Shown: positions 1 through 51,347 of the stretch, in pieces
How the letters are laid out: the number at the start of each line of letters is the position of its first letter
Numbering within the stretch: position 1 is the stretch's first letter
NCBI GenBank assembly: GCA_947627995.1
Contig: CANQYE010000001.1
Location: 8,889-72,888, forward strand
Reading direction: 5' to 3'
Source of the DNA: an uncultured Bacilli bacterium
GTDB taxonomy: Bacteria > Bacillota_I > Bacilli_A > RF39 > UBA660
DNA: 64,000 nt
Program-made: the position numbers and the translations under genes
The notes under the pieces: generated by a model
Told to the model about the DNA's origin: nothing
The model's database searches: none
What the model saw: only the letters and a program-made list of their open reading frames with translations

Positions 1-432
1 ATTTTTAGAGTAATTGTTCCTGAAACAAAAGAAGTTGAAGTAAAAGACGGAAAACAAAAAGAAAAAATTAAAAAGATGTTTCCAGGATATATATTGGTAG
101 AAATGATTATGAGTGATGAAGCTTGGTATATCGTCAGAAATACTCCAGGAGTTACTGGATTTATTGGATCAAGCGGTAAAGGAGCAAAACCGACACCATT
201 ATTACCTCAAGAAATTGACAGAATTTTATCATCAATTGGTATGAGTAGGGTAAATATAGAAACAGATTTAGTAGTAGGCAATAAAGTTAATATTATTGAT
301 GGTCCTTTCAAGGGAATGTCTGGAGTTATTGATAGTTTAGACCTTGAAAATAGTAGATTAAATGTGTTAATAGATTTATTTGGGCAAGAAACACCTGTTG
401 AAGTAGAAGTGTTTCAAGTAAGTAAAATGTAA
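1..432 (+). CDS. nusG: Transcription antiterminator NusG, C-terminal part (5' end lies before the window)
   Basis: The frame is open from nt 1. Translation IFRVIVPETKEV...GYILVEM...KVNIIDGPFKGMSGVIDS matches the NusG NGN/KOW region. It sits directly upstream of rplK-rplA. Confidence 0.85.
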   Translation: MFRVIVPETKEVEVKDGKQKEKIKKMFPGYILVEMIMSDEAWYIVRNTPGVTGFIGSSGKGAKPTPLLPQEIDRILSSIGMSRVNIETDLVVGNKVNIIDGPFKGMSGVIDSLDLENSRLNVLIDLFGQETPVEVEVFQVSKM

Positions 433-17539: not shown

Positions 17540-17606
17540 TGTGTTATTTTTTTTATTGAGTTATAATTTAAGTTTATGATATTATTTATTTGTAGAGGTG
17601 TGAAAT

Positions 17607-18302
17607 ATGAAGAAGACAATATTATTATTTATAATAATTAGTTTAGCATTTTTAAGTGTAGTTGGTTGTGCAAATAAAAAAAATCTAATTTCAAAGGATG
17701 CTATAAAATTTAAAGAAGAGTATGAAAGTTTAAATAATACTTCAAATTCAGATGAAAAAGTACATAGAAGTTTATCTATTTCTGAAAATAATCCGTTTGT
17801 TTATTCTAATGCAAAAGAGATTTTAAAAAAAATCGAAAATAAGGAAACTTTTTATATTTATTTTGGTTCATCTTATTGTCCATGGTGCAGAAGCGTTATA
17901 GAAAAAGTAATTGAAGTAGCTAAAAAAAATAATATAAGCACTATTTATTATATTGATATATGGAATGGAGATCATAATGAAATTTTAAGAGATACATACG
18001 AACTTGATGAAAATAATGAAATAAAGTTGGTTTCAAAAGGCGCAGAAGAATATCAAGATCTATTACGTTATTTAAATAACGTATTAGGAGAATATACATT
18101 AACAAGTAAAGATGGCCAAAAAATATTGGTTGGGGAGAAAAGAATCTTTGCTCCGAACTTTATTTATATTAAAGATGGAAAAGCTGTTAAATTAGAAAGT
18201 GGTAATTCAGATAAGCAAACAGATTCCAGAATGGACTTAACTGAAGAAATATTAAAAGACGAAGAAATTAAGTTCAATGAATTTTTTAAAAATGATAATT
18301 AA
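17607..18302 (+). CDS. Thioredoxin-fold lipoprotein (CPWC motif)
   Basis: Lipobox VVGC after a signal peptide. YFGSSYCPWCRSV. Confidence 0.55.
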   Translation: MKKTILLFIIISLAFLSVVGCANKKNLISKDAIKFKEEYESLNNTSNSDEKVHRSLSISENNPFVYSNAKEILKKIENKETFYIYFGSSYCPWCRSVIEKVIEVAKKNNISTIYYIDIWNGDHNEILRDTYELDENNEIKLVSKGAEEYQDLLRYLNNVLGEYTLTSKDGQKILVGEKRIFAPNFIYIKDGKAVKLESGNSDKQTDSRMDLTEEILKDEEIKFNEFFKNDN

Positions 18303-19260: not shown

Positions 19261-19292
19261 TTGACTTGCGGGGGGGGGTATTAGTTTATAAT
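19261..19292 (+). promoter_or_regulatory. Promoter TTGACT-(20 nt spacer containing G9)-TATAAT, candidate phase-variable
   Basis: TTGACT at 19261-19266. G9 at 19270-19278. TATAAT at 19287-19292. Spacer is 20 nt; 17-18 would be optimal. Confidence 0.5.
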
Positions 19293-19315: not shown

Positions 19316-20608
19316 GTGAAAAAGAAAAGTTTATTATTTACAATCATTGCTTTAGTGCTTTTTATACCAAAAGTATATGCAGTTGAAACAGTAGATTGCT
19401 CAAATGGAAGACCTAAAGCACAAGTCGGTACAAGTTGTTATTCATCATTAAATGATGCATTAGAAAGTGCTAATGAAGAAAATAACACAATTAAATTATT
19501 AGATGATGTTTCTAACTACACCATAAAGATTTCAAAAGATCAAACAATAGTACTAGATTTAAATACTCATAAAATAACTGCTCCTGATAATAGTTGGGCA
19601 ATTTACAATGAAGGAAATCTAACTATTACTAATGGAACAGTGTTAGGAAATAGCAAAAGTGCTGCTATTCGTAACAATGGAAAAAAATTAGTTGGTAAAT
19701 CATTAACTGTTCAATCTTCTTTTATAGCTATTATTAATAATGATGTAGTAGCAATAGATGGTGTTGAACAAGAAAGTGGTCGACCTACATTAATTTTAGA
19801 AGATAGTACAATTAATGGAAATGCAGGATTTAGTGGTTCCGGTTTACAATTAGGCGGAAACGCAAATGTTAAAAATGTGAAGTTTACGGCTACTAAAGGA
19901 AGTGCATTAATTCGTGTTTTCGACGGAAAAACAGAAACAGAAGTTGTACTTGATAATTTATCTACAACAAATAGAGGTCTTATTAATGCTGGGAAAAATA
20001 GCACTAATGATGAACATGGAATTAAAGTAGAAATTAAAAATATATCTGAAAATGATAAATCAAAATTGACACTATCTCCTGAAGGAGATGCTGTAATTAT
20101 TCCGGATAAAGAGTATGCAGACAAAGTTTTAAAATTTGCACTTAAAGGTTCAACAATTATTATTCCAGAAGGATTCTATATGGATAAAATTGATATACGT
20201 GAAGGTGTAAATATAAAGTTTGTTGATGGAAATAATGGAAAACAAATATTAGAAAAAAATGAAGATGGTACTTATAACATTGTTAAAAGAGCAGATTATT
20301 CAAAAATTGATAAATTACTAAATGAAATCGAAAAATTAAATAAAGATGATTATACAAAAGATACATGGGATGCATTAGAAAAAGCAATATTAGCTGTTGA
20401 TTATGATAAAACTGCAAAAGAACAAGATAAAGTTGATGCAATGGCTAGCGTAATTGAAAAAGCAATGAATAATCTTGTTAAAATAAAAAAAGAAAATACA
20501 ACTATAAATCCAAACACTGGTGATAGTTCTATAATTTATATAATAATTGGTGGAATATCAGTACTTGGAATAGTTACTAGCGTTTTATATTTAAAAAAGA
20601 ATAGATAA
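19316..20608 (+). CDS. Cell-wall-anchored surface protein with NPNTG sorting signal
   Basis: GTG start after AAAGGAAAG. Signal peptide. NG-rich repetitive core. C-terminal NPNTG + hydrophobic segment + KKNR. Confidence 0.6.
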   Translation: MKKKSLLFTIIALVLFIPKVYAVETVDCSNGRPKAQVGTSCYSSLNDALESANEENNTIKLLDDVSNYTIKISKDQTIVLDLNTHKITAPDNSWAIYNEGNLTITNGTVLGNSKSAAIRNNGKKLVGKSLTVQSSFIAIINNDVVAIDGVEQESGRPTLILEDSTINGNAGFSGSGLQLGGNANVKNVKFTATKGSALIRVFDGKTETEVVLDNLSTTNRGLINAGKNSTNDEHGIKVEIKNISENDKSKLTLSPEGDAVIIPDKEYADKVLKFALKGSTIIIPEGFYMDKIDIREGVNIKFVDGNNGKQILEKNEDGTYNIVKRADYSKIDKLLNEIEKLNKDDYTKDTWDALEKAILAVDYDKTAKEQDKVDAMASVIEKAMNNLVKIKKENTTINPNTGDSSIIYIIIGGISVLGIVTSVLYLKKNR

Positions 20609-40575: not shown

Positions 40576-40652
40576 GTCCTCGTAGCACAACTGGAAAATG
40601 CAGTCGCCTCCTAAGCGACAGATTGGAGGTTCAAATCCTCTCGGGGACGCCA
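40576..40652 (+). tRNA. tRNA-Arg (anticodon CCU), CCA encoded
   Basis: Hand-folded cloverleaf. Acceptor GTCCTCG/CGGGGAC. Anticodon stem GTCGC/GCGAC with loop CTCCTAA. T-arm GGAGG-TTCAAAT-CCTCT. Length 77 nt. Confidence 0.9.
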
Positions 40653-40665
40653 TTTTAGTAATTAT

Positions 40666-40696
40666 AAAACTGATTTAAAAGTCAGTTTTTTATTTT
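40666..40696 (+). terminator. Rho-independent terminator after the tRNA
   Basis: AAAACTGA-8 nt-TCAGTTTT then T-run. Confidence 0.55.
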
Positions 40697-40788: not shown

Positions 40789-40817
40789 TTGACATCGGGG
40801 GGGAATATTGTTATCTT
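40789..40817 (+). promoter_or_regulatory. Promoter TTGACA-(17 nt spacer containing G7)-TATCTT, candidate phase-variable
   Basis: TTGACA at 40789-40794. G7 at 40797-40803. Weak -10. Confidence 0.4.
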
Positions 40818-40844
40818 TAATATAGGAAGGAGAATAAGTGGAAA

Positions 40845-41711
40845 ATGAGTGAAAAATTTAAAAAAAGATATTTAATAATCGTAATGATTATGGTATTAGG
40901 TTTTATTATGATGCCTAATGTATTTGCTCTTGAAGGATTCGGTAGTGTTGAAGGATTAACAGGTACATCTAGTGTAGAAAATGAAAATTCTAATAATATA
41001 ACTTTAAAATTCGATGATGTAACACTAAATTGGGCTGCTGCTAATACTGGAATTGGAAGAGATAGAGATGGTTGGTGGTTAGGTGTTAAATTTACTGCAC
41101 CAACTGGTATTAATGAAGAAAATGTAGCAAATGCAAAAATAAAACGAGGCGGAGAGATAAAACCTTTTACTGATGTAAAAGATGGAAATTATTTCTTTAA
41201 TGCTTGGCTTTATGTTGATAATTTAACCGAAGAAAATGTTGGATCTTACGAATTTGACTGGGATGGTGATGGTGAATTTGAGCAAACAATAAACATCAAA
41301 ATATCTAAAGCTAAACTTAATTTAGTACAACCAGAAGGGGTCAAAAAAGTATACATTGAAGGTGATAATGGTAAAGTAGAATTTGCAACTAAAGTATCTA
41401 CTTTAAATGATTTAACTGATTATGAAAAAAAATTGCTTGAAAAAACTATTGCACCTAATGAAAATCGTGAATTTATAGGTTATAAAACAGACGATGGAAA
41501 TGACTTTGACTATACTTCTGGAGAATTAACTGACGGAATAAAATTGATTGCACAATATAAAGAAGTGCCAGTAGCTGTTCCAACAACAGAAGAAAAAGTA
41601 AAAGAAGAAACTAAAAATCCCGAAACTTCAGATGTAAATTTAATTTTATTGTTAGGACTAATCCTAATAAGTGGATGTGGATTAATTTATATAAAAAGAA
41701 AAATTAATTAA
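40845..41711 (+). CDS. Cell-wall-anchored surface protein with NPETS sorting signal
   Basis: Signal peptide. C-terminal KNPETSD + hydrophobic segment + KRKIN. Confidence 0.55.
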   Translation: MSEKFKKRYLIIVMIMVLGFIMMPNVFALEGFGSVEGLTGTSSVENENSNNITLKFDDVTLNWAAANTGIGRDRDGWWLGVKFTAPTGINEENVANAKIKRGGEIKPFTDVKDGNYFFNAWLYVDNLTEENVGSYEFDWDGDGEFEQTINIKISKAKLNLVQPEGVKKVYIEGDNGKVEFATKVSTLNDLTDYEKKLLEKTIAPNENREFIGYKTDDGNDFDYTSGELTDGIKLIAQYKEVPVAVPTTEEKVKEETKNPETSDVNLILLLGLILISGCGLIYIKRKIN

Positions 41712-41730
41712 AAAATAATTATATTATTAA

Positions 41731-41762
41731 AAAGTTCAAAGGTAATATTTGAACTTTTTTTT
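41731..41762 (+). terminator. Rho-independent terminator
   Basis: AAAGTTCAAA-7 nt-TTTGAACTTT then T8. Confidence 0.65.
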
Positions 41763-41856: not shown

Positions 41857-41887
41857 TATTATATGATAGAGAATGGGAAGGGTTATT

Positions 41888-42658
41888 ATGGCGAAGACAA
41901 ATAGAGGTAAAACTATTGCTGTTTTTTCTGCAAAAGGCGGAGTTGGGAAAACGGTTTTTACTTTAAATTTAGCTGGAATATATAAACAACTTAATAAAAA
42001 AGTTTTAATAATAGATCTTGATTTAACAAATGGGGGTATAGCTTTATCATTGAATAGAAGAGTAGATAGAACAATCTATAATTTATTTGATGATTTAAAT
42101 AATAATCGTTATAAAGAATTTAAAGATTATGTAACAAACTATGAAAAAAATTTAGATTTTATTGCTTGTCCTAAAGATCCAAGAGATGCAAATAAAATTG
42201 ATGCAAAATATATCGATATTATTATCGAGCGAGCTTCGTATTTATATGACGCAGTAATTTTAGATACTTCTCATGTATTAAATGATATTAATTTAGTTGC
42301 TCTTGATAAAGTAGATAAAATTTTATTTTTAGTTACAAATGATCCTTTAGATTTAAAAAATGTTAAGTCTTTAATAAGTATATTTAAAAATTTAGATAAA
42401 ACAAATTATAAAATGATTTTAAATAATTCTTGCAATTTAAATAAAGATTATTTTTCATTATATGATATCAAAAATATTTTAAAAACAAATATTGATTATA
42501 TTTTAACTCAAAATTTTTATATCAAGAACATAGATATATTTCTTCTTAATGGGAAAATATTTATTATGGATAAGAAGATTGCTTCATCCAAAGATTATGG
42601 AGTAATGTTAACTATCGCAACTGATATATTTAAAGAAGGTGATGGAAAAAATGAGTAA
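41888..42658 (+). CDS. ParA/MinD-family ATPase, TadZ/CpaE-like
   Basis: Deviant Walker A AVFSAKGGVGKT. Sits upstream of the CpaF-type ATPase. Confidence 0.6.
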   Translation: MAKTNRGKTIAVFSAKGGVGKTVFTLNLAGIYKQLNKKVLIIDLDLTNGGIALSLNRRVDRTIYNLFDDLNNNRYKEFKDYVTNYEKNLDFIACPKDPRDANKIDAKYIDIIIERASYLYDAVILDTSHVLNDINLVALDKVDKILFLVTNDPLDLKNVKSLISIFKNLDKTNYKMILNNSCNLNKDYFSLYDIKNILKTNIDYILTQNFYIKNIDIFLLNGKIFIMDKKIASSKDYGVMLTIATDIFKEGDGKNE

Positions 42659-43973
42659 GTCTTTAATTGAAGAATTTAATGTTAAAGTAAATAAGCAAAA
42701 ACCTTATATAGTAAATGATTATGATATTTTTCCAGATAAAAATTTATTAGATGAATTACGTAATAAGATAATTGGTAATTTAATTGATAAAGAAATTCCT
42801 AAAGAAAAAATTAATGAGTTTATTGATGATGAAATAAATTTGGCTTTAGAGGGGCATAATTTAACCAATTTAGAAAGAAGTCATATATATAATTTAATTG
42901 ATAATGAAATAAATGGTTTTGGGCCTTTAAATGAAATTTTGAAAGATAATAATGTAACAGAAATAATGGTAAATAGTCCTAAAGAAATTTATATAGAAAC
43001 TGATGGAAAATTAGTTAGAGATGAAAGTATTTCATTTATTAATAATGAACATATTATTAGAACTATTCAAAGGCTTATCTCACCGATGGGTAAAACAATA
43101 AATACTAAAAATCCTATTGTTGACTCAAGGCTAATGGATGGTTCAAGGATTAATGCTGTAATCCCACCATTATCTATTAAAGGTCCAGTATTAACTATTC
43201 GTAAATTTAAGCCTTATTTAAATACAATTGATGATTTAATAAGATCTGGTTCTTTAACACCATATATGGCAAGATTTCTTGAAGCTGCTGTAATTGGTAA
43301 ATTGAACATTATTATTTGTGGTGGATCAGGAAGTGGAAAAACAACTCTTTTAAATATTTTAAGTAGTTTTATAAACGATAATGAAAGAATTATTACTATT
43401 GAAGATGCCGCAGAATTAAAATTAAAACAAAAACATGTATTATCCTTAGAAACACGTCCGAATAATTATGAAAATGAAGGAGAAATTACTATTCGTGATT
43501 TAGTAATCAATTCATTAAGAATGCGACCTGATAGAATTATTGTCGGTGAAGTTCGTGGGAAAGAAGCATTTGATATGATGCAAGCTATGAATACTGGACA
43601 TGATGGGTCAATTACTACTCTTCATGCTAATAGTCCTAAAGATGCTTTAAATAGGTTAGAGACAATGGTTATGATGAGTGATATGGGTCTTCCACTAAAT
43701 GCTGTAAAAGAATATATTTATAATGCAATAGATTTAGTTATAAATGTTGAACGATTAAGTGATGGTAGACGAAAAATAACAAGTATATGTGAAGTTGATA
43801 AAATAGAGGATAATGAAATAAAGTTAAAAGAGATATTTGCTTTTAAAATTAATGGATTATCTTCAAAAAATATGGTTACAGGAGAATATATTTTATATAA
43901 ATTTATTCCAAAAGTTTTTTATAAACTAAAGAAAAGAGGAATTACATCTTTAAGTGATATTTTTGAAAAATAA
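42651..43973 (+). CDS. CpaF/TadA-type (VirB11-like) secretion ATPase
   Basis: NVTEIMVNSPKEIYIE. Walker A GGSGSGKTTLLN. Walker B, His box and Asp box present. Confidence 0.8.
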   Translation: MSKSLIEEFNVKVNKQKPYIVNDYDIFPDKNLLDELRNKIIGNLIDKEIPKEKINEFIDDEINLALEGHNLTNLERSHIYNLIDNEINGFGPLNEILKDNNVTEIMVNSPKEIYIETDGKLVRDESISFINNEHIIRTIQRLISPMGKTINTKNPIVDSRLMDGSRINAVIPPLSIKGPVLTIRKFKPYLNTIDDLIRSGSLTPYMARFLEAAVIGKLNIIICGGSGSGKTTLLNILSSFINDNERIITIEDAAELKLKQKHVLSLETRPNNYENEGEITIRDLVINSLRMRPDRIIVGEVRGKEAFDMMQAMNTGHDGSITTLHANSPKDALNRLETMVMMSDMGLPLNAVKEYIYNAIDLVINVERLSDGRRKITSICEVDKIEDNEIKLKEIFAFKINGLSSKNMVTGEYILYKFIPKVFYKLKKRGITSLSDIFEK

Positions 43974-43987
43974 AAGAAGGTGATTAG

Positions 43988-45010
43988 GTGAAAAATATAA
44001 ATTGGGAATTATTAATTTTTCAAGTTATTATTGCAATAATTATTGTTTTTCTAATCATTTTTTTCATAAAAATAAAATCAAATTTAAAATTAGAAAAAAG
44101 ATTCTCATATTTTAGTTTAAATACATTAAATGAAGAAAAAGAGCTTTCATTCCTAGATTATATTTTTAATAAGTTATGGAAATTTGTTCATAATTATGCA
44201 AAATTTTTAAATCATTTTAAATGTTTTAGAAAATATGGGTTAAAATATGAGAAATACATTCCATCAAAAAATAAATTTAAAATTAATGGTACTGATTATG
44301 TTGTAATAAAATTTATAACTGGATTAATTGTTGTTTTAGTAGCAGTAATATATAATATTATTAATAGAAATAATATTAATTTCCTTATTTATGTTATTTT
44401 ATTTTTATTTAGTTATACAATTGTAGATATTTTACTAGATATAAAATTTAAAAGAAAAATAAAAAATGTAAAAAAAGATTTGTATAAAACTATTATTATC
44501 ATGAATAATTCTTTTAAATCTGGAAAAACAATATTAAAAGCGGTTGATAATGTAAGAAAATCTTTAAAAGGCGATATAGCAGATGAATATAATAAAATTT
44601 ATACAGATTTATGTTATGGACTTTCTATTGAATCAGCATTTCAAAGATTTTATGAGCGAGTTAAAATAGAACAAATAAAATATATTGTTCTTTCAATATC
44701 TATTTTAAATAAAAGTGGGTGCAATATTAATGAGATATTTAATTCAATTGAAAAAAATGATTTAGATGATCAAAAAATTAATAATACAATAAAAACACAA
44801 TTATTATCTAGTAAATTATTTTTTAATTGTGCTTTAAGTTTGCCAATAATTTTAGTAAGCATAATATTTATTATAAATAGAAATTACTTCAATCCTTTTA
44901 TTTTTACAATTGTAGGTGTTTTATTTTTGATCTTATTAATTAGTTTATATTTATTATATATAATTCTAATAAAAAAGATATTCGAGGTTGATATAGATGA
45001 AAGAGTTTAG
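43988..45010 (+). CDS. TadB-like inner-membrane platform protein (T2SS-F domain)
   Basis: GTG start. TM-flanked cytoplasmic domain in GspF-like topology. Position after the ATPase. Confidence 0.55.
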   Translation: MKNINWELLIFQVIIAIIIVFLIIFFIKIKSNLKLEKRFSYFSLNTLNEEKELSFLDYIFNKLWKFVHNYAKFLNHFKCFRKYGLKYEKYIPSKNKFKINGTDYVVIKFITGLIVVLVAVIYNIINRNNINFLIYVILFLFSYTIVDILLDIKFKRKIKNVKKDLYKTIIIMNNSFKSGKTILKAVDNVRKSLKGDIADEYNKIYTDLCYGLSIESAFQRFYERVKIEQIKYIVLSISILNKSGCNINEIFNSIEKNDLDDQKINNTIKTQLLSSKLFFNCALSLPIILVSIIFIINRNYFNPFIFTIVGVLFLILLISLYLLYIILIKKIFEVDIDERV

Positions 45011-45692
45011 TTTTACAAAAAAGATTTATCGAAAAAAAACTATTAATAGAATTAAGAATAAAATTAATTTATTAGGAAATTCTAAATACGATGTTAATAG
45101 TTTTTTAATAGTTCGGCTTATTTTAAGTTTAATTTTATTTTTTATTTTAGTTTTTTCTAAATCATTGATTATTTTGGCACCTATTATATCTATAATATTT
45201 TATTTTGCATATGAATATTTTTTATTAGATATCGCTATAAAAAGAAGAAGGGATTTATTAAATAGAGAAGCGGTATTCTTTTTCGAAGTTTTAAGTACTA
45301 CTTTAAAGACTACAAATAGTTTAAAAAAAGCATTAAGTTTAGTTGTTAAAAATATTAATAATGATTTGTCTTATGAATTTAGTAAAGCTTTAAAAGAAGT
45401 GGAGATTGGGAAAAGTTTTGCTTTGAGCTTAGAGGAAATGCAAAAAAGAATTCCGAGTGAAGAAATTAATAATTTAATTTTAAATATTTGTGAGGCAATG
45501 CGTTCCGGTAATGATATAGAAAATACTTTAAATATTGAAATAAATTCATTAAGAGAAAAAAGATTTTTAATTATTAAAAATAAACTATCAAAAATACCAT
45601 TAAAAGTTTTGATTTTAACTATTATTTTAATTGGTCCAATAATTGCCATAATTTTTTATGGGCCTACAATAATTGATTATATATTAAGTTGA
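44997..45692 (+). CDS. TadC-like inner-membrane platform protein (T2SS-F domain)
   Basis: Same architecture as the previous ORF. Overlapping start. Confidence 0.5.
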   Translation: MKEFSFTKKIYRKKTINRIKNKINLLGNSKYDVNSFLIVRLILSLILFFILVFSKSLIILAPIISIIFYFAYEYFLLDIAIKRRRDLLNREAVFFFEVLSTTLKTTNSLKKALSLVVKNINNDLSYEFSKALKEVEIGKSFALSLEEMQKRIPSEEINNLILNICEAMRSGNDIENTLNIEINSLREKRFLIIKNKLSKIPLKVLILTIILIGPIIAIIFYGPTIIDYILS

Positions 45693-49513: not shown

Positions 49514-49535
49514 AAGTGCGAAAAGAGTGGTAAAA

Positions 49536-51347
49536 ATGAATAAAATAATTAATATTGCTGTCGTTGCTCATGTTGATGCTGGAAAATCAACCTTAGTTGA
49601 TGCTTTACTTAAACAAAATGGTGTTTTTAGAGAAAATGAAAATGTTGTTGATTGTGTAATGGATTCTAACACTTTAGAGCGTGAAAGAGGTATTACCATT
49701 ACTGCTAAGAACTGTGCAATTAATTATAAAGATTATAAAATAAATATTGTTGATACTCCTGGACATGCAGATTTTTCATCTGAAATTGAACGAATTATTA
49801 AAACTGTTGATAGCGTAGTTTTATTAGTCGATTCTGCTGAAGGTCCAATGCCACAAACCAGATTTGTATTAAAAGAAGCATTGAAAAATAATTTAAAACC
49901 AATACTCTTTATAAATAAAATAGATAAAAAAGATGCTAGACCTGAAGAAGTAGTTGATATGTGTTTTGATTTATTCTTGGAGTTAGGAGCAACTGATGAA
50001 CAATTAGATTTTAAAATAATATATGGAATTGCCAAAGAAGGTATAGCAGTAACTGATTTAAACGACAAAGGAAAAAATATTTCTCCTTTACTTGATACTA
50101 TAATTAATGAAGTAAAACCTTTTTCAGGTGATATAAACGATAATTTACAAATGCAAATATCTTCTTTAGATTATGATGATTATATTGGTCGACTTGGTAT
50201 TGGCCGCGTTAACAAAGGGATAGTAAAGTCAGGTGAAACAGTTTCTTTAATTAAAAATAATGGAGAAGTAACATCTTTTAGAATATCTAAACTTTTTGTA
50301 AATGAAGGAATTAAAAAAGTTGAAGTTAAAGAAGCATATTTTGGGGATATTGTTACGATTGCTGGTTGTAATGATATTTCTATAGGTGATACAATATGTA
50401 CAAAAGATGTTATCGAACCATTACCAAAAATTGAAATTGAAAAGCCAACCTTATCAATGAACTTTTTAGTAAATTCATCTCCCTTTGCTGGCAAATGTAA
50501 AAATTCTAAATTTTTAACATCACGTCATTTAAAGGATAGATTAGAACGAGAATTATGGACCAATGTTGGTTTAGAAGTTGAAGAATTAAAAGATAATGAT
50601 GGTTTTAAAGTTTCTGGAAGAGGAGAGCTTCATTTATCAATATTACTTGAAAATATGCGCCGCGAAGGATATGAATTAAATGTATCAAAACCTGAAGTTA
50701 TTTTTAAAGAAATAGATGGTAAAAAGTACGAGCCTTTTGAAAAAGTAATTATAAGTACGCCTTCGGATTATTCTGGGACTATTATTAGTGATTTAAATGA
50801 AAGAAAAGGAATTTTGGAATCTATAACTAACGAGGAAGATGGTTATGTTAGATTGGAATTTTCTTGCCCAACTAGAGGATTAATTGGTTATAGAAGTAGC
50901 TTTATTACTAATACAAAGGGTGAAGGTATAATGGTTAGAAGTTTTGATACTTATAAACCATATGCAGGCGAGATTTCACATCGAAAAAATGGTGTTCTAG
51001 TTTCAATGGTAAATGGAACAACTTTTGGTTATTCTTTATGGAATTTAGAAGATCGGGGAGAAATGTTAGTTGAACCTTCAACAGAGGTTTATATTGGAAT
51101 GATTATCGGTATACATAATAGAGATAATGATTTAGATGTTAATCCATGTAAAAATAAGCAGCTTACAAATACTCGTTCATCTGGTGCAGATGAGGCTATA
51201 TCACTGACTAAAGTAAGAACATTTACATTAGAAGAAGCACTGGAATTCATTGAAAATGATGAATATGTAGAAATAACACCAGATGCTATTAGATTGCGTA
51301 AAAAAGAATTAGATCCTAAAGAAAGGTATCGTCAAAATAGAAAATAA
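49536..51347 (+). CDS. typA: Translational GTPase TypA/BipA
   Basis: AHVDAGKST, DTPGHADF, NKID G-motifs. Length about 600 aa. Confidence 0.9.
   Translation: MNKIINIAVVAHVDAGKSTLVDALLKQNGVFRENENVVDCVMDSNTLERERGITITAKNCAINYKDYKINIVDTPGHADFSSEIERIIKTVDSVVLLVDSAEGPMPQTRFVLKEALKNNLKPILFINKIDKKDARPEEVVDMCFDLFLELGATDEQLDFKIIYGIAKEGIAVTDLNDKGKNISPLLDTIINEVKPFSGDINDNLQMQISSLDYDDYIGRLGIGRVNKGIVKSGETVSLIKNNGEVTSFRISKLFVNEGIKKVEVKEAYFGDIVTIAGCNDISIGDTICTKDVIEPLPKIEIEKPTLSMNFLVNSSPFAGKCKNSKFLTSRHLKDRLERELWTNVGLEVEELKDNDGFKVSGRGELHLSILLENMRREGYELNVSKPEVIFKEIDGKKYEPFEKVIISTPSDYSGTIISDLNERKGILESITNEEDGYVRLEFSCPTRGLIGYRSSFITNTKGEGIMVRSFDTYKPYAGEISHRKNGVLVSMVNGTTFGYSLWNLEDRGEMLVEPSTEVYIGMIIGIHNRDNDLDVNPCKNKQLTNTRSSGADEAISLTKVRTFTLEEALEFIENDEYVEITPDAIRLRKKELDPKERYRQNRK

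Follow-up and report, generated by a model that had tools for sequence, protein, structure and literature searches.

A run of seven guanines in the promoter of a gene for a small surface protein (gene B) of an uncultured bacterium from the rabbit gut is probably a slippage-prone spacer of a SigA-type promoter, such that a change in its length would alter expression of the gene. The run is one of two in the window, by which we mean the whole 64-kb stretch of DNA that we analysed, and the other occupies the same place in the promoter of a second surface-protein gene (gene A). This reading builds on what could be established directly, namely the anatomy of the locus, the rarity of G runs and their exclusive position in promoters, the polymorphism of tract length between strains and between paralogues, and the recurrence of the arrangement in homologues and related genomes.

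The gene B promoter, as predicted from its sequence, reaches 10 of 12 consensus matches over TTGACA and TATCTT with a TG present upstream of the latter (Table 1), in a window whose G+C content is 24.4%. The first-pass annotation had described a TTGACA followed by a spacer with the G7 and a weak −10, TATCTT; all of these coordinates hold, and to them we add that the spacer measures 17 nt and the −10 is of the extended type. Its alternative −10, TAATAT (40818–40823), was dropped, as it would require a spacer of 23 nt, which we judged not credible. The 190-nt intergenic region opens with a terminator-like hairpin, and no promoter comparable to TTGACA-G7-TATCTT was found upstream of that one; a scan with Rfam returned the tRNA alone and no known leader element, Tandem Repeats Finder reported no further notable repeat, and neither a palindrome nor any other operator-like feature is present at the G-tract promoter of gene B. 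The next operon downstream, which is tad/Flp-pilus-like, has a separate promoter (TTGACA-17-TAAAAT). Together with the upstream hairpin and the downstream terminator, this makes gene B a monocistronic unit that would depend on the G-tract promoter. The adjoining pilus operon (41873–45692), on the 3′ side of gene B, encodes a ParA/CpaE-like protein, a T2SSE ATPase and two T2SSF proteins.

Table 1. Positions in the window of the elements of the gene A and gene B loci
Feature	Position	Strand	Details
Gene A promoter	19261..19292	+	TTGACT (19261–19266), tgc, G9 (19270–19278), tattagtt, TATAAT (19287–19292); 20-nt spacer
Gene A	19316..20608	+	430-aa signal-peptide protein, NPNTGD sorting tail
tRNA-Arg(CCT) upstream of gene B	40576–40652
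AT-rich hairpin and U-run after tRNA-Arg(CCT)	40666..40689	+	Insulates gene B from upstream transcription
Gene B promoter, −35 hexamer TTGACA	40789..40794	+	Perfect consensus; top + strand match in the 190-nt intergenic region
Gene B promoter, spacer tc-G7-aatattgt	40795..40811	+	17 nt; TG at 40809–40810 is the extended −10 (−15/−14)
G7 homopolymer in gene B spacer (variable element)	40797..40803	+	G7 in the window, L007 and L008; G8 in L001–L006
Gene B promoter, −10 hexamer TATCTT	40812..40817	+	4/6 matches, preceded by TGn
Gene B ribosome-binding site	40824..40832	+	AGGAAGGAG
Gene B	40845..41711	+	288-aa protein, predicted secreted and wall-anchored, ATG at 40845 to stop at 41711
NPETS sorting motif, gene B residues 258–262	41616..41630	+	Clade consensus NP[NED]T[SGA]D
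Intrinsic terminator 3′ of gene B	41729..41759	+	Hairpin then T8; −15.7 kcal/mol, z −5.1; closes the monocistronic unit

The annotation of gene B as a signal-peptide protein with a C-terminal NPETS was likewise borne out. The signal peptide, read by eye, spans residues 1–28 (MSEKFKKRYLIIVMIMVLGFIMMPNVFA|LE, with the site at ..NVFA|LE) and is conserved across 32 homologues, while the C-terminus carries the NPETS, a hydrophobic stretch or transmembrane helix and a KRKIN tail, a motif that is not LPXTG. The sortase-anchor model TIGR01167 scores 15.6 bits on gene B, just below its cut-off of 15.9, and apart from such weak anchor matches Pfam and NCBIfam returned no domain. Tails of the form NP[NED]T[SGA]D are shared by homologues and by other proteins of the clade (including L026, L031 and L046; alignments A1 and A2), which supports a real variant sorting signal. 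This clade motif is non-canonical, with TPKTG in some homologues, and is reminiscent of class B sortase substrates. As for the enzyme itself, no open reading frame with a TLxTC signature was found in the 64-kb window, and a related metagenome-assembled genome (MAG) contains a weak sortase match (L015).

The window protein (P0002, with V184) is near-identical to P0001. A word-indexed search had found only the protein itself, and one more relative with a profile, which made gene B look like an orphan; an exhaustive HMMER search overturned this with 302 relatives. Full-length homologues have 290–325 residues and share the signal peptide, both domains, an NPxT[SGA]D or TPKTG motif, the hydrophobic stretch and a basic tail. 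An AlphaFold model built on a 32-sequence alignment (pLDDT 87.8; the single-sequence model, at pLDDT 42, was not usable) consists of a beta-sandwich at about residues 30–165 and a beta-grasp domain at about 167–240. The former, which contains a DWDGDGEFEQ motif and is weakly GEVED-like, occurs in up to ten copies in giant proteins of 2–4 thousand residues, and the latter weakly resembles the InlB B-repeat; a fold search of the PDB with the model gave no match at E ≤ 0.001. Surface exposure is indicated by the signal peptide and the C-terminal sorting signal, together with the domains of the model. In our reading, gene B encodes a small protein, putatively adhesin-like and anchored to the wall through a variant sorting signal.

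Runs of at least six G or C are scarce in this genome. The window contains two, the G7 of gene B and the G9 of gene A, its longest C run does not exceed 4, and 18.8 kb of flanking DNA from the same genome (about 83 kb in total with the window) contains no further G/C run of at least six. Calculated analytically, 0.17–0.25 G runs of at least 7 and 0.005–0.008 runs of at least 9 would be expected in 64 kb. Both runs are intergenic and begin 2–3 nt past a TTGAC[AT] hexamer, a context that makes up about 0.15% of positions. Genes A and B are also the sole open reading frames of the window with a sortase-type C-terminal tail, and each lies behind a G run (Fisher p ~6 × 10−4 against roughly 58 other window genes). 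Thus, G/C runs of such length are not a common feature unrelated to surface genes: there are two in about 83 kb, both in promoters of genes with a sortase signal.

Gene A ends in a sorting tail of the form NPNTGD...KKNR (motif region 20551–20565), on which TIGR01167 scores 20.0 bits (cut-off 15.9). The two genes had been called unlinked; they are indeed separate transcription units, but they lie 21.5 kb apart on one contig and are not genetically unlinked. A homologue of gene A with 60% identity (P0004) occurs in the MAG GCA_947627975.1, 'uncultured Bacilli bacterium Lapin-016__bin23', from rabbit gut, where its promoter reads cTTGACT-G8-...TATAAT and the next two genes (Peptidase_M73/Laminin_G) have the same promoter.

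To follow the tracts between strains, we traced the exact proteins of genes A and B to other public assemblies. Among eight others in which the gene B tract is readable, two have G7 (L007, L008) and six G8 (L001–L006), corresponding to spacers of 17 and 18 nt, and the contig of a further one (L009) breaks within the G run. For gene A, two of five other assemblies have G9 (L012, L013) and three G7 (L010, L011, L014), with spacers of 20 and 18 nt. The length variation sought at the outset is therefore present between lineages at both tracts. Three haplotypes, 99.4–99.97% identical, account for the assemblies; H1 has G7 at gene B, and H2 and H3 have G8. Tract length follows haplotype, the consensus length is steady across samples of one strain, and a single mutation per tract is sufficient to explain these data. 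At 40840, 5 nt ahead of the gene B ATG, a G/T polymorphism gives lineage H2 an in-frame TTG (40839) two codons upstream; being better spaced from the ribosome-binding site, this TTG may make the start codon of gene B differ between lineages.

Over 50.4 kb compared between lineages of 99.4–99.9% identity, we counted about 130 substitutions and 4 indels, the latter consisting of both G tracts, one of 145 A/T runs of at least 7 (A8/A7) and one 12-bp indel. Indels thus affect the G tracts more readily than A/T runs of comparable length (Fisher p = 2.8 × 10−4, on two or three events in all). The sole variable A/T run, at 51346, is A8 in the window and A7 in L001 and lies at the 3′ end of a BipA-like gene (49527–51347), and the 12-bp indel, ATATGTGAATAA at 17587, is present in L010 and L011, 20 nt upstream of a lipoprotein/thioredoxin-like gene (17607–18302). 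One assembly with 3x coverage (L149) has a 28-bp deletion in its NusG gene (aligned to window positions 252–279, within the open reading frame 76–432, leaving a product of 139 aa), which is probably an assembly error. A locus-specific pattern that allowed tracts of 4–16 nt gave no match in JGI metagenomes, and four assemblies of a related MAG locus (L015–L018) show no tract change, which is neutral as they represent one strain at 99.9–100% identity. We did not take the ending of contigs at G tracts (L009, L139 and many MAG contig ends) as a sign of heterogeneity within samples, as strain mixtures or paralogous repeats explain them equally well.

Among the homologues of gene B, the closest is P0021 (43%), whose contig starts at a G11, or longer, followed by tactattaTATAAT. 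Three others (P0023, P0028 and P0091) have ordinary promoters without a G tract, from which we conclude that the tract was gained lineage by lineage. In the leaders of two tract-less homologues (L140, about 225–275; L141, about 185–235), a palindrome, TTTTGTGAAAATCACAAAA, lies between an RBS-like GGAAAGGA and the start codon; it is a possible operator, which would point to conventional regulation in genes that lack the poly-G.

We then scanned one genome per species with the pattern CTTGACT-N0-3-G7-N8-13-TATAAT, which matched at least 134 sites in at least 119 loci. Among the matches listed, about two thirds of the sites belong to some 16 low-GC 'Bacilli' MAGs from rabbit gut and one from goat caecum, with at least 20, at least 15 and at least 9 sites in individual MAGs; housekeeping proteins of the window are 45–64% identical to those of these genomes. 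The 369 kb of Bacilli-MAG loci among the matches listed contain 81 G/C runs of at least 7, 77 of which fit the pattern, while the other 4 are promoter-like and none is coding, a figure of 81 out of 81 that is biased, as the loci were chosen for having one pattern match, whereas the window itself is unbiased. In all 77 pattern sites and two of the four other runs listed, the tract starts 0–3 nt after TTGAC[TA] and ends 6–11 nt before the −10.

Almost all genes behind these promoters, among the matches listed, encode secreted or anchored proteins. Their products include SipW/TasA-camelysin-type N-termini, FGE-sulfatase-like C-termini (weak matches), NPNTSD-anchored beta-helix proteins and DUF6273. 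An exception is a TTGACT-G8 promoter with a 16-nt spacer (L046, 2818–2846; CANQYB010000016.1) that drives an 866-aa P-type cation ATPase, and so this promoter type is not strictly limited to surface proteins. The window genome contains the sporulation genes SpoVAC/AD/AEB, YabP, YqfD, SpoIIP and GPR, which indicate that the host is a spore-former despite its 24% G+C.

Spacers in the listed sites range from 15 to 20 nt and are bimodal, with 16 nt in 18 sites, 19–20 nt in 52 and 17–18 nt in six, and in the listed Bacilli-MAG sites the non-G part of the spacer does not offset the number of G's. Within a genome, the lengths listed are fairly uniform (G8 in 9 of 9, G9 in 18 of 20 and G10 in 11 of 15), and could represent a preferred functional length rather than free drift. 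When listed Bacilli-MAG promoters were grouped by identity at the −35 box and over the 30 nt after the tract, the number of G's differed in four of the seven groups. The first-pass annotation had suggested a small phase-variable surface repertoire. Its phase-variation part is supported, and the small size may be correct for this genome, but in relatives such promoters number from 9 to at least 20.

Other gut genomes contain comparable elements. Phascolarctobacterium MAGs have a highly conserved cassette, tgcacttttgCTTGACTGGGGGGG(G)AC...TATAAT, with G7–8 and a 16–17-nt spacer, in many copies per genome (L025, L039, L043, L049, L055, L064, L067–L069, L073, L074, L077, L085, L091 and L108). It also occurs in a few bins with the label Bacteroidota or Segatella (L034, L070, L082 and L095), where it may reflect contamination or a mobile element. 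Tracts of G11–G15 that take up most of the spacer in TTGACT...TATAAT, in many cases in the form Gn-TATGGTATAAT, are found in 'Alphaproteobacteria' gut MAGs (L036, L041, L050, L075 and L093), and the same type occurs in Clostridia (L066, L122 and L136) and Saccharibacteria (L101 and L132). Judging by these matches, several unrelated lineages from the gut or from other host settings seem to have poly-G promoter spacers.

We infer that the promoter of gene B is in use, that the length of its tract affects transcription and that switching is frequent and reversible. The proposed sequence of events starts from a sigma-70/SigA-type promoter with a G7 spacer as the sole driver of monocistronic gene B. 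Slipped-strand mispairing at replication would add or remove G's and thereby shift the distance between the −35 and the −10, which at gene B would be 17 nt with G7 (the optimum, with an extended −10) and 18 nt with G8. Spacer length would in turn set promoter strength, such that cells of one lineage would differ, heritably and reversibly, in how much gene B protein they display. With G8 the spacer is still 18 nt long and the −10 still extended, so the effect of G7 versus G8 may be graded and not on/off. The same principle would apply to gene A, where G9, with its 20-nt spacer, is predicted to be off and G7, with 18 nt, to be on or intermediate. In the strain of the window, gene B would thus be expected to be on and gene A to be off. 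The other lineage has 18-nt spacers at both.

A fixed promoter element could account for part of the same data. The G run would then be a preferred spacer or the site of a clade-specific factor, its length differences slow and nearly neutral, and there would be no switch. The uniformity of tract lengths within each genome, their stability across samples of the same strain and their agreement with haplotype are in favour of such an element, and most relatives have 19–20-nt spacers, two to three slips away from 17 nt. Yet a fixed element should keep a constant distance to the −10, whereas the spacers vary over 15–20 nt, uncompensated by their non-G part; both tracts of the window differ between lineages against one of 145 A/T runs, the number of G's differs in four of seven paralogue groups with identical flanks, and no palindrome or operator-like feature accompanies the tract. 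In addition, runs of at least seven G's are intrinsically slippery. We regard a fixed element as unlikely.

Less probable again, we think, is that the tract acts through something other than spacing, either post-transcriptionally, with transcription starting further upstream and the G run in the leader, or through DNA structure or promoter melting. A precedent exists in Treponema pallidum, where the poly-G of tprL acts without altering the −35/−10 spacing (PMC7864442). Against it stands the regular position of the tract at the 77 pattern sites and two of the four other runs listed in relatives, just after TTGAC[TA] and a short way before the −10, as well as the lack of a comparable upstream promoter in the intergenic region of gene B and of a known leader element in the Rfam scan. 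Chance can be considered very improbable, as can an error of sequencing or assembly in a homopolymer. A lone G7 in 64 kb is in itself not very improbable, with a roughly 20% chance, homopolymers are error-prone, and two contigs (L009 and L139) break inside the tract. However, the tract is seen in 9 independent assemblies, one of them at 88x, with lengths consistent per haplotype, and the second tract, like at least 80 sites in relatives, has the same placement with respect to the −35. A slippage-prone promoter spacer is hence the reading that we prefer.

Repeat-driven promoter switches are well known in Neisseria, Haemophilus, Treponema and mycoplasmas. In the vlp genes of Mycoplasma hyorhinis, Citti and Wise reportedly described in 1995 a poly-A tract in the promoter spacer of each family gene, with combinatorial on/off expression and most copies at an off-length. 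This is a multigene surface family in a low-GC lineage near the Bacilli, and resembles the 9 to at least 20 G-tract promoters per genome in the related MAGs, but the vlp tracts are poly-A, their products are lipoproteins of a wall-less organism and there is no sequence homology to the G-tract genes. In the pilus study of Bifidobacterium breve, the G tract is said to lie inside the coding sequence and to act by frameshift, not in a promoter spacer. B. breve, an actinobacterium, resembles the present case as a gut commensal with a G-run slippage switch on sortase-dependent pilus clusters (PMC9187656).

Our preferred reading is a promoter of the porA/tp0126 type. In porA of Neisseria meningitidis, a poly-G tract lies between the −35 and the −10, and slippage around a 17-nt optimum alters transcription (PMC7864442, after van der Ende 1995). 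As at gene B, the promoter is of the sigma-70 type, its spacer contains a run of G's and the gene encodes a surface protein; porA differs in encoding an outer-membrane porin of a Gram-negative pathogen and in that switching and its effect on expression were proven experimentally there, whereas for gene B both are deduced. The gene B product, for its part, is predicted to be sortase-anchored and belongs to a gut commensal that forms spores and has 24% G+C. In T. pallidum, tp0126 and tprE/G/J/L have promoter poly-G tracts of 7–11 nt that differ in length from strain to strain and also inside one strain, and this length determines transcription (PMC7864442). This spirochaete likewise has several surface-protein genes per genome with promoter poly-G, and the tp0126 tract lies between the −35 and the −10; unlike here, the tprL tract overlaps the −10, and heterogeneity was measured within strains, where we compare consensus assemblies (PMC7864442). 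Our literature search found no paper describing poly-G promoter switches for this bacterial group. The mechanism is thus already known. What is unusual is the host, the kind of product under its control (sortase-anchored or TasA-like) and the number of such promoters in relatives.

Repeat systems with several loci have until now seemed confined to pathogens. A 2025 review, which also cites the Vlp system of M. hyorhinis, treats this as an open question for wider genome sampling (PMC11868660), a question on which our observations bear. It is about an even call whether low-GC, spore-forming Bacillota of the rabbit and ruminant hindgut have a promoter 'phasome' that extends over the whole genome, in which essentially every G run of at least 7 is a TTGAC[TA]...TATAAT spacer and dozens of secreted or anchored proteins in each genome (TasA/camelysin-like proteins and NPxTSD adhesins, gene B among them) are individually switched. 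If so, this would be a large multi-locus, repeat-based phase variation system in a non-pathogenic, walled Gram-positive commensal. A simple rule, TTGAC[TA]-G(7 or more)-TATAAT, would then find such genes in metagenomes, and tract length would have to be weighed when the expression of surface proteins is inferred from MAGs. Homopolymer slippage would, if this is true, be a general strategy by which gut commensals hedge their surface against IgA, phage and niche fluctuation.
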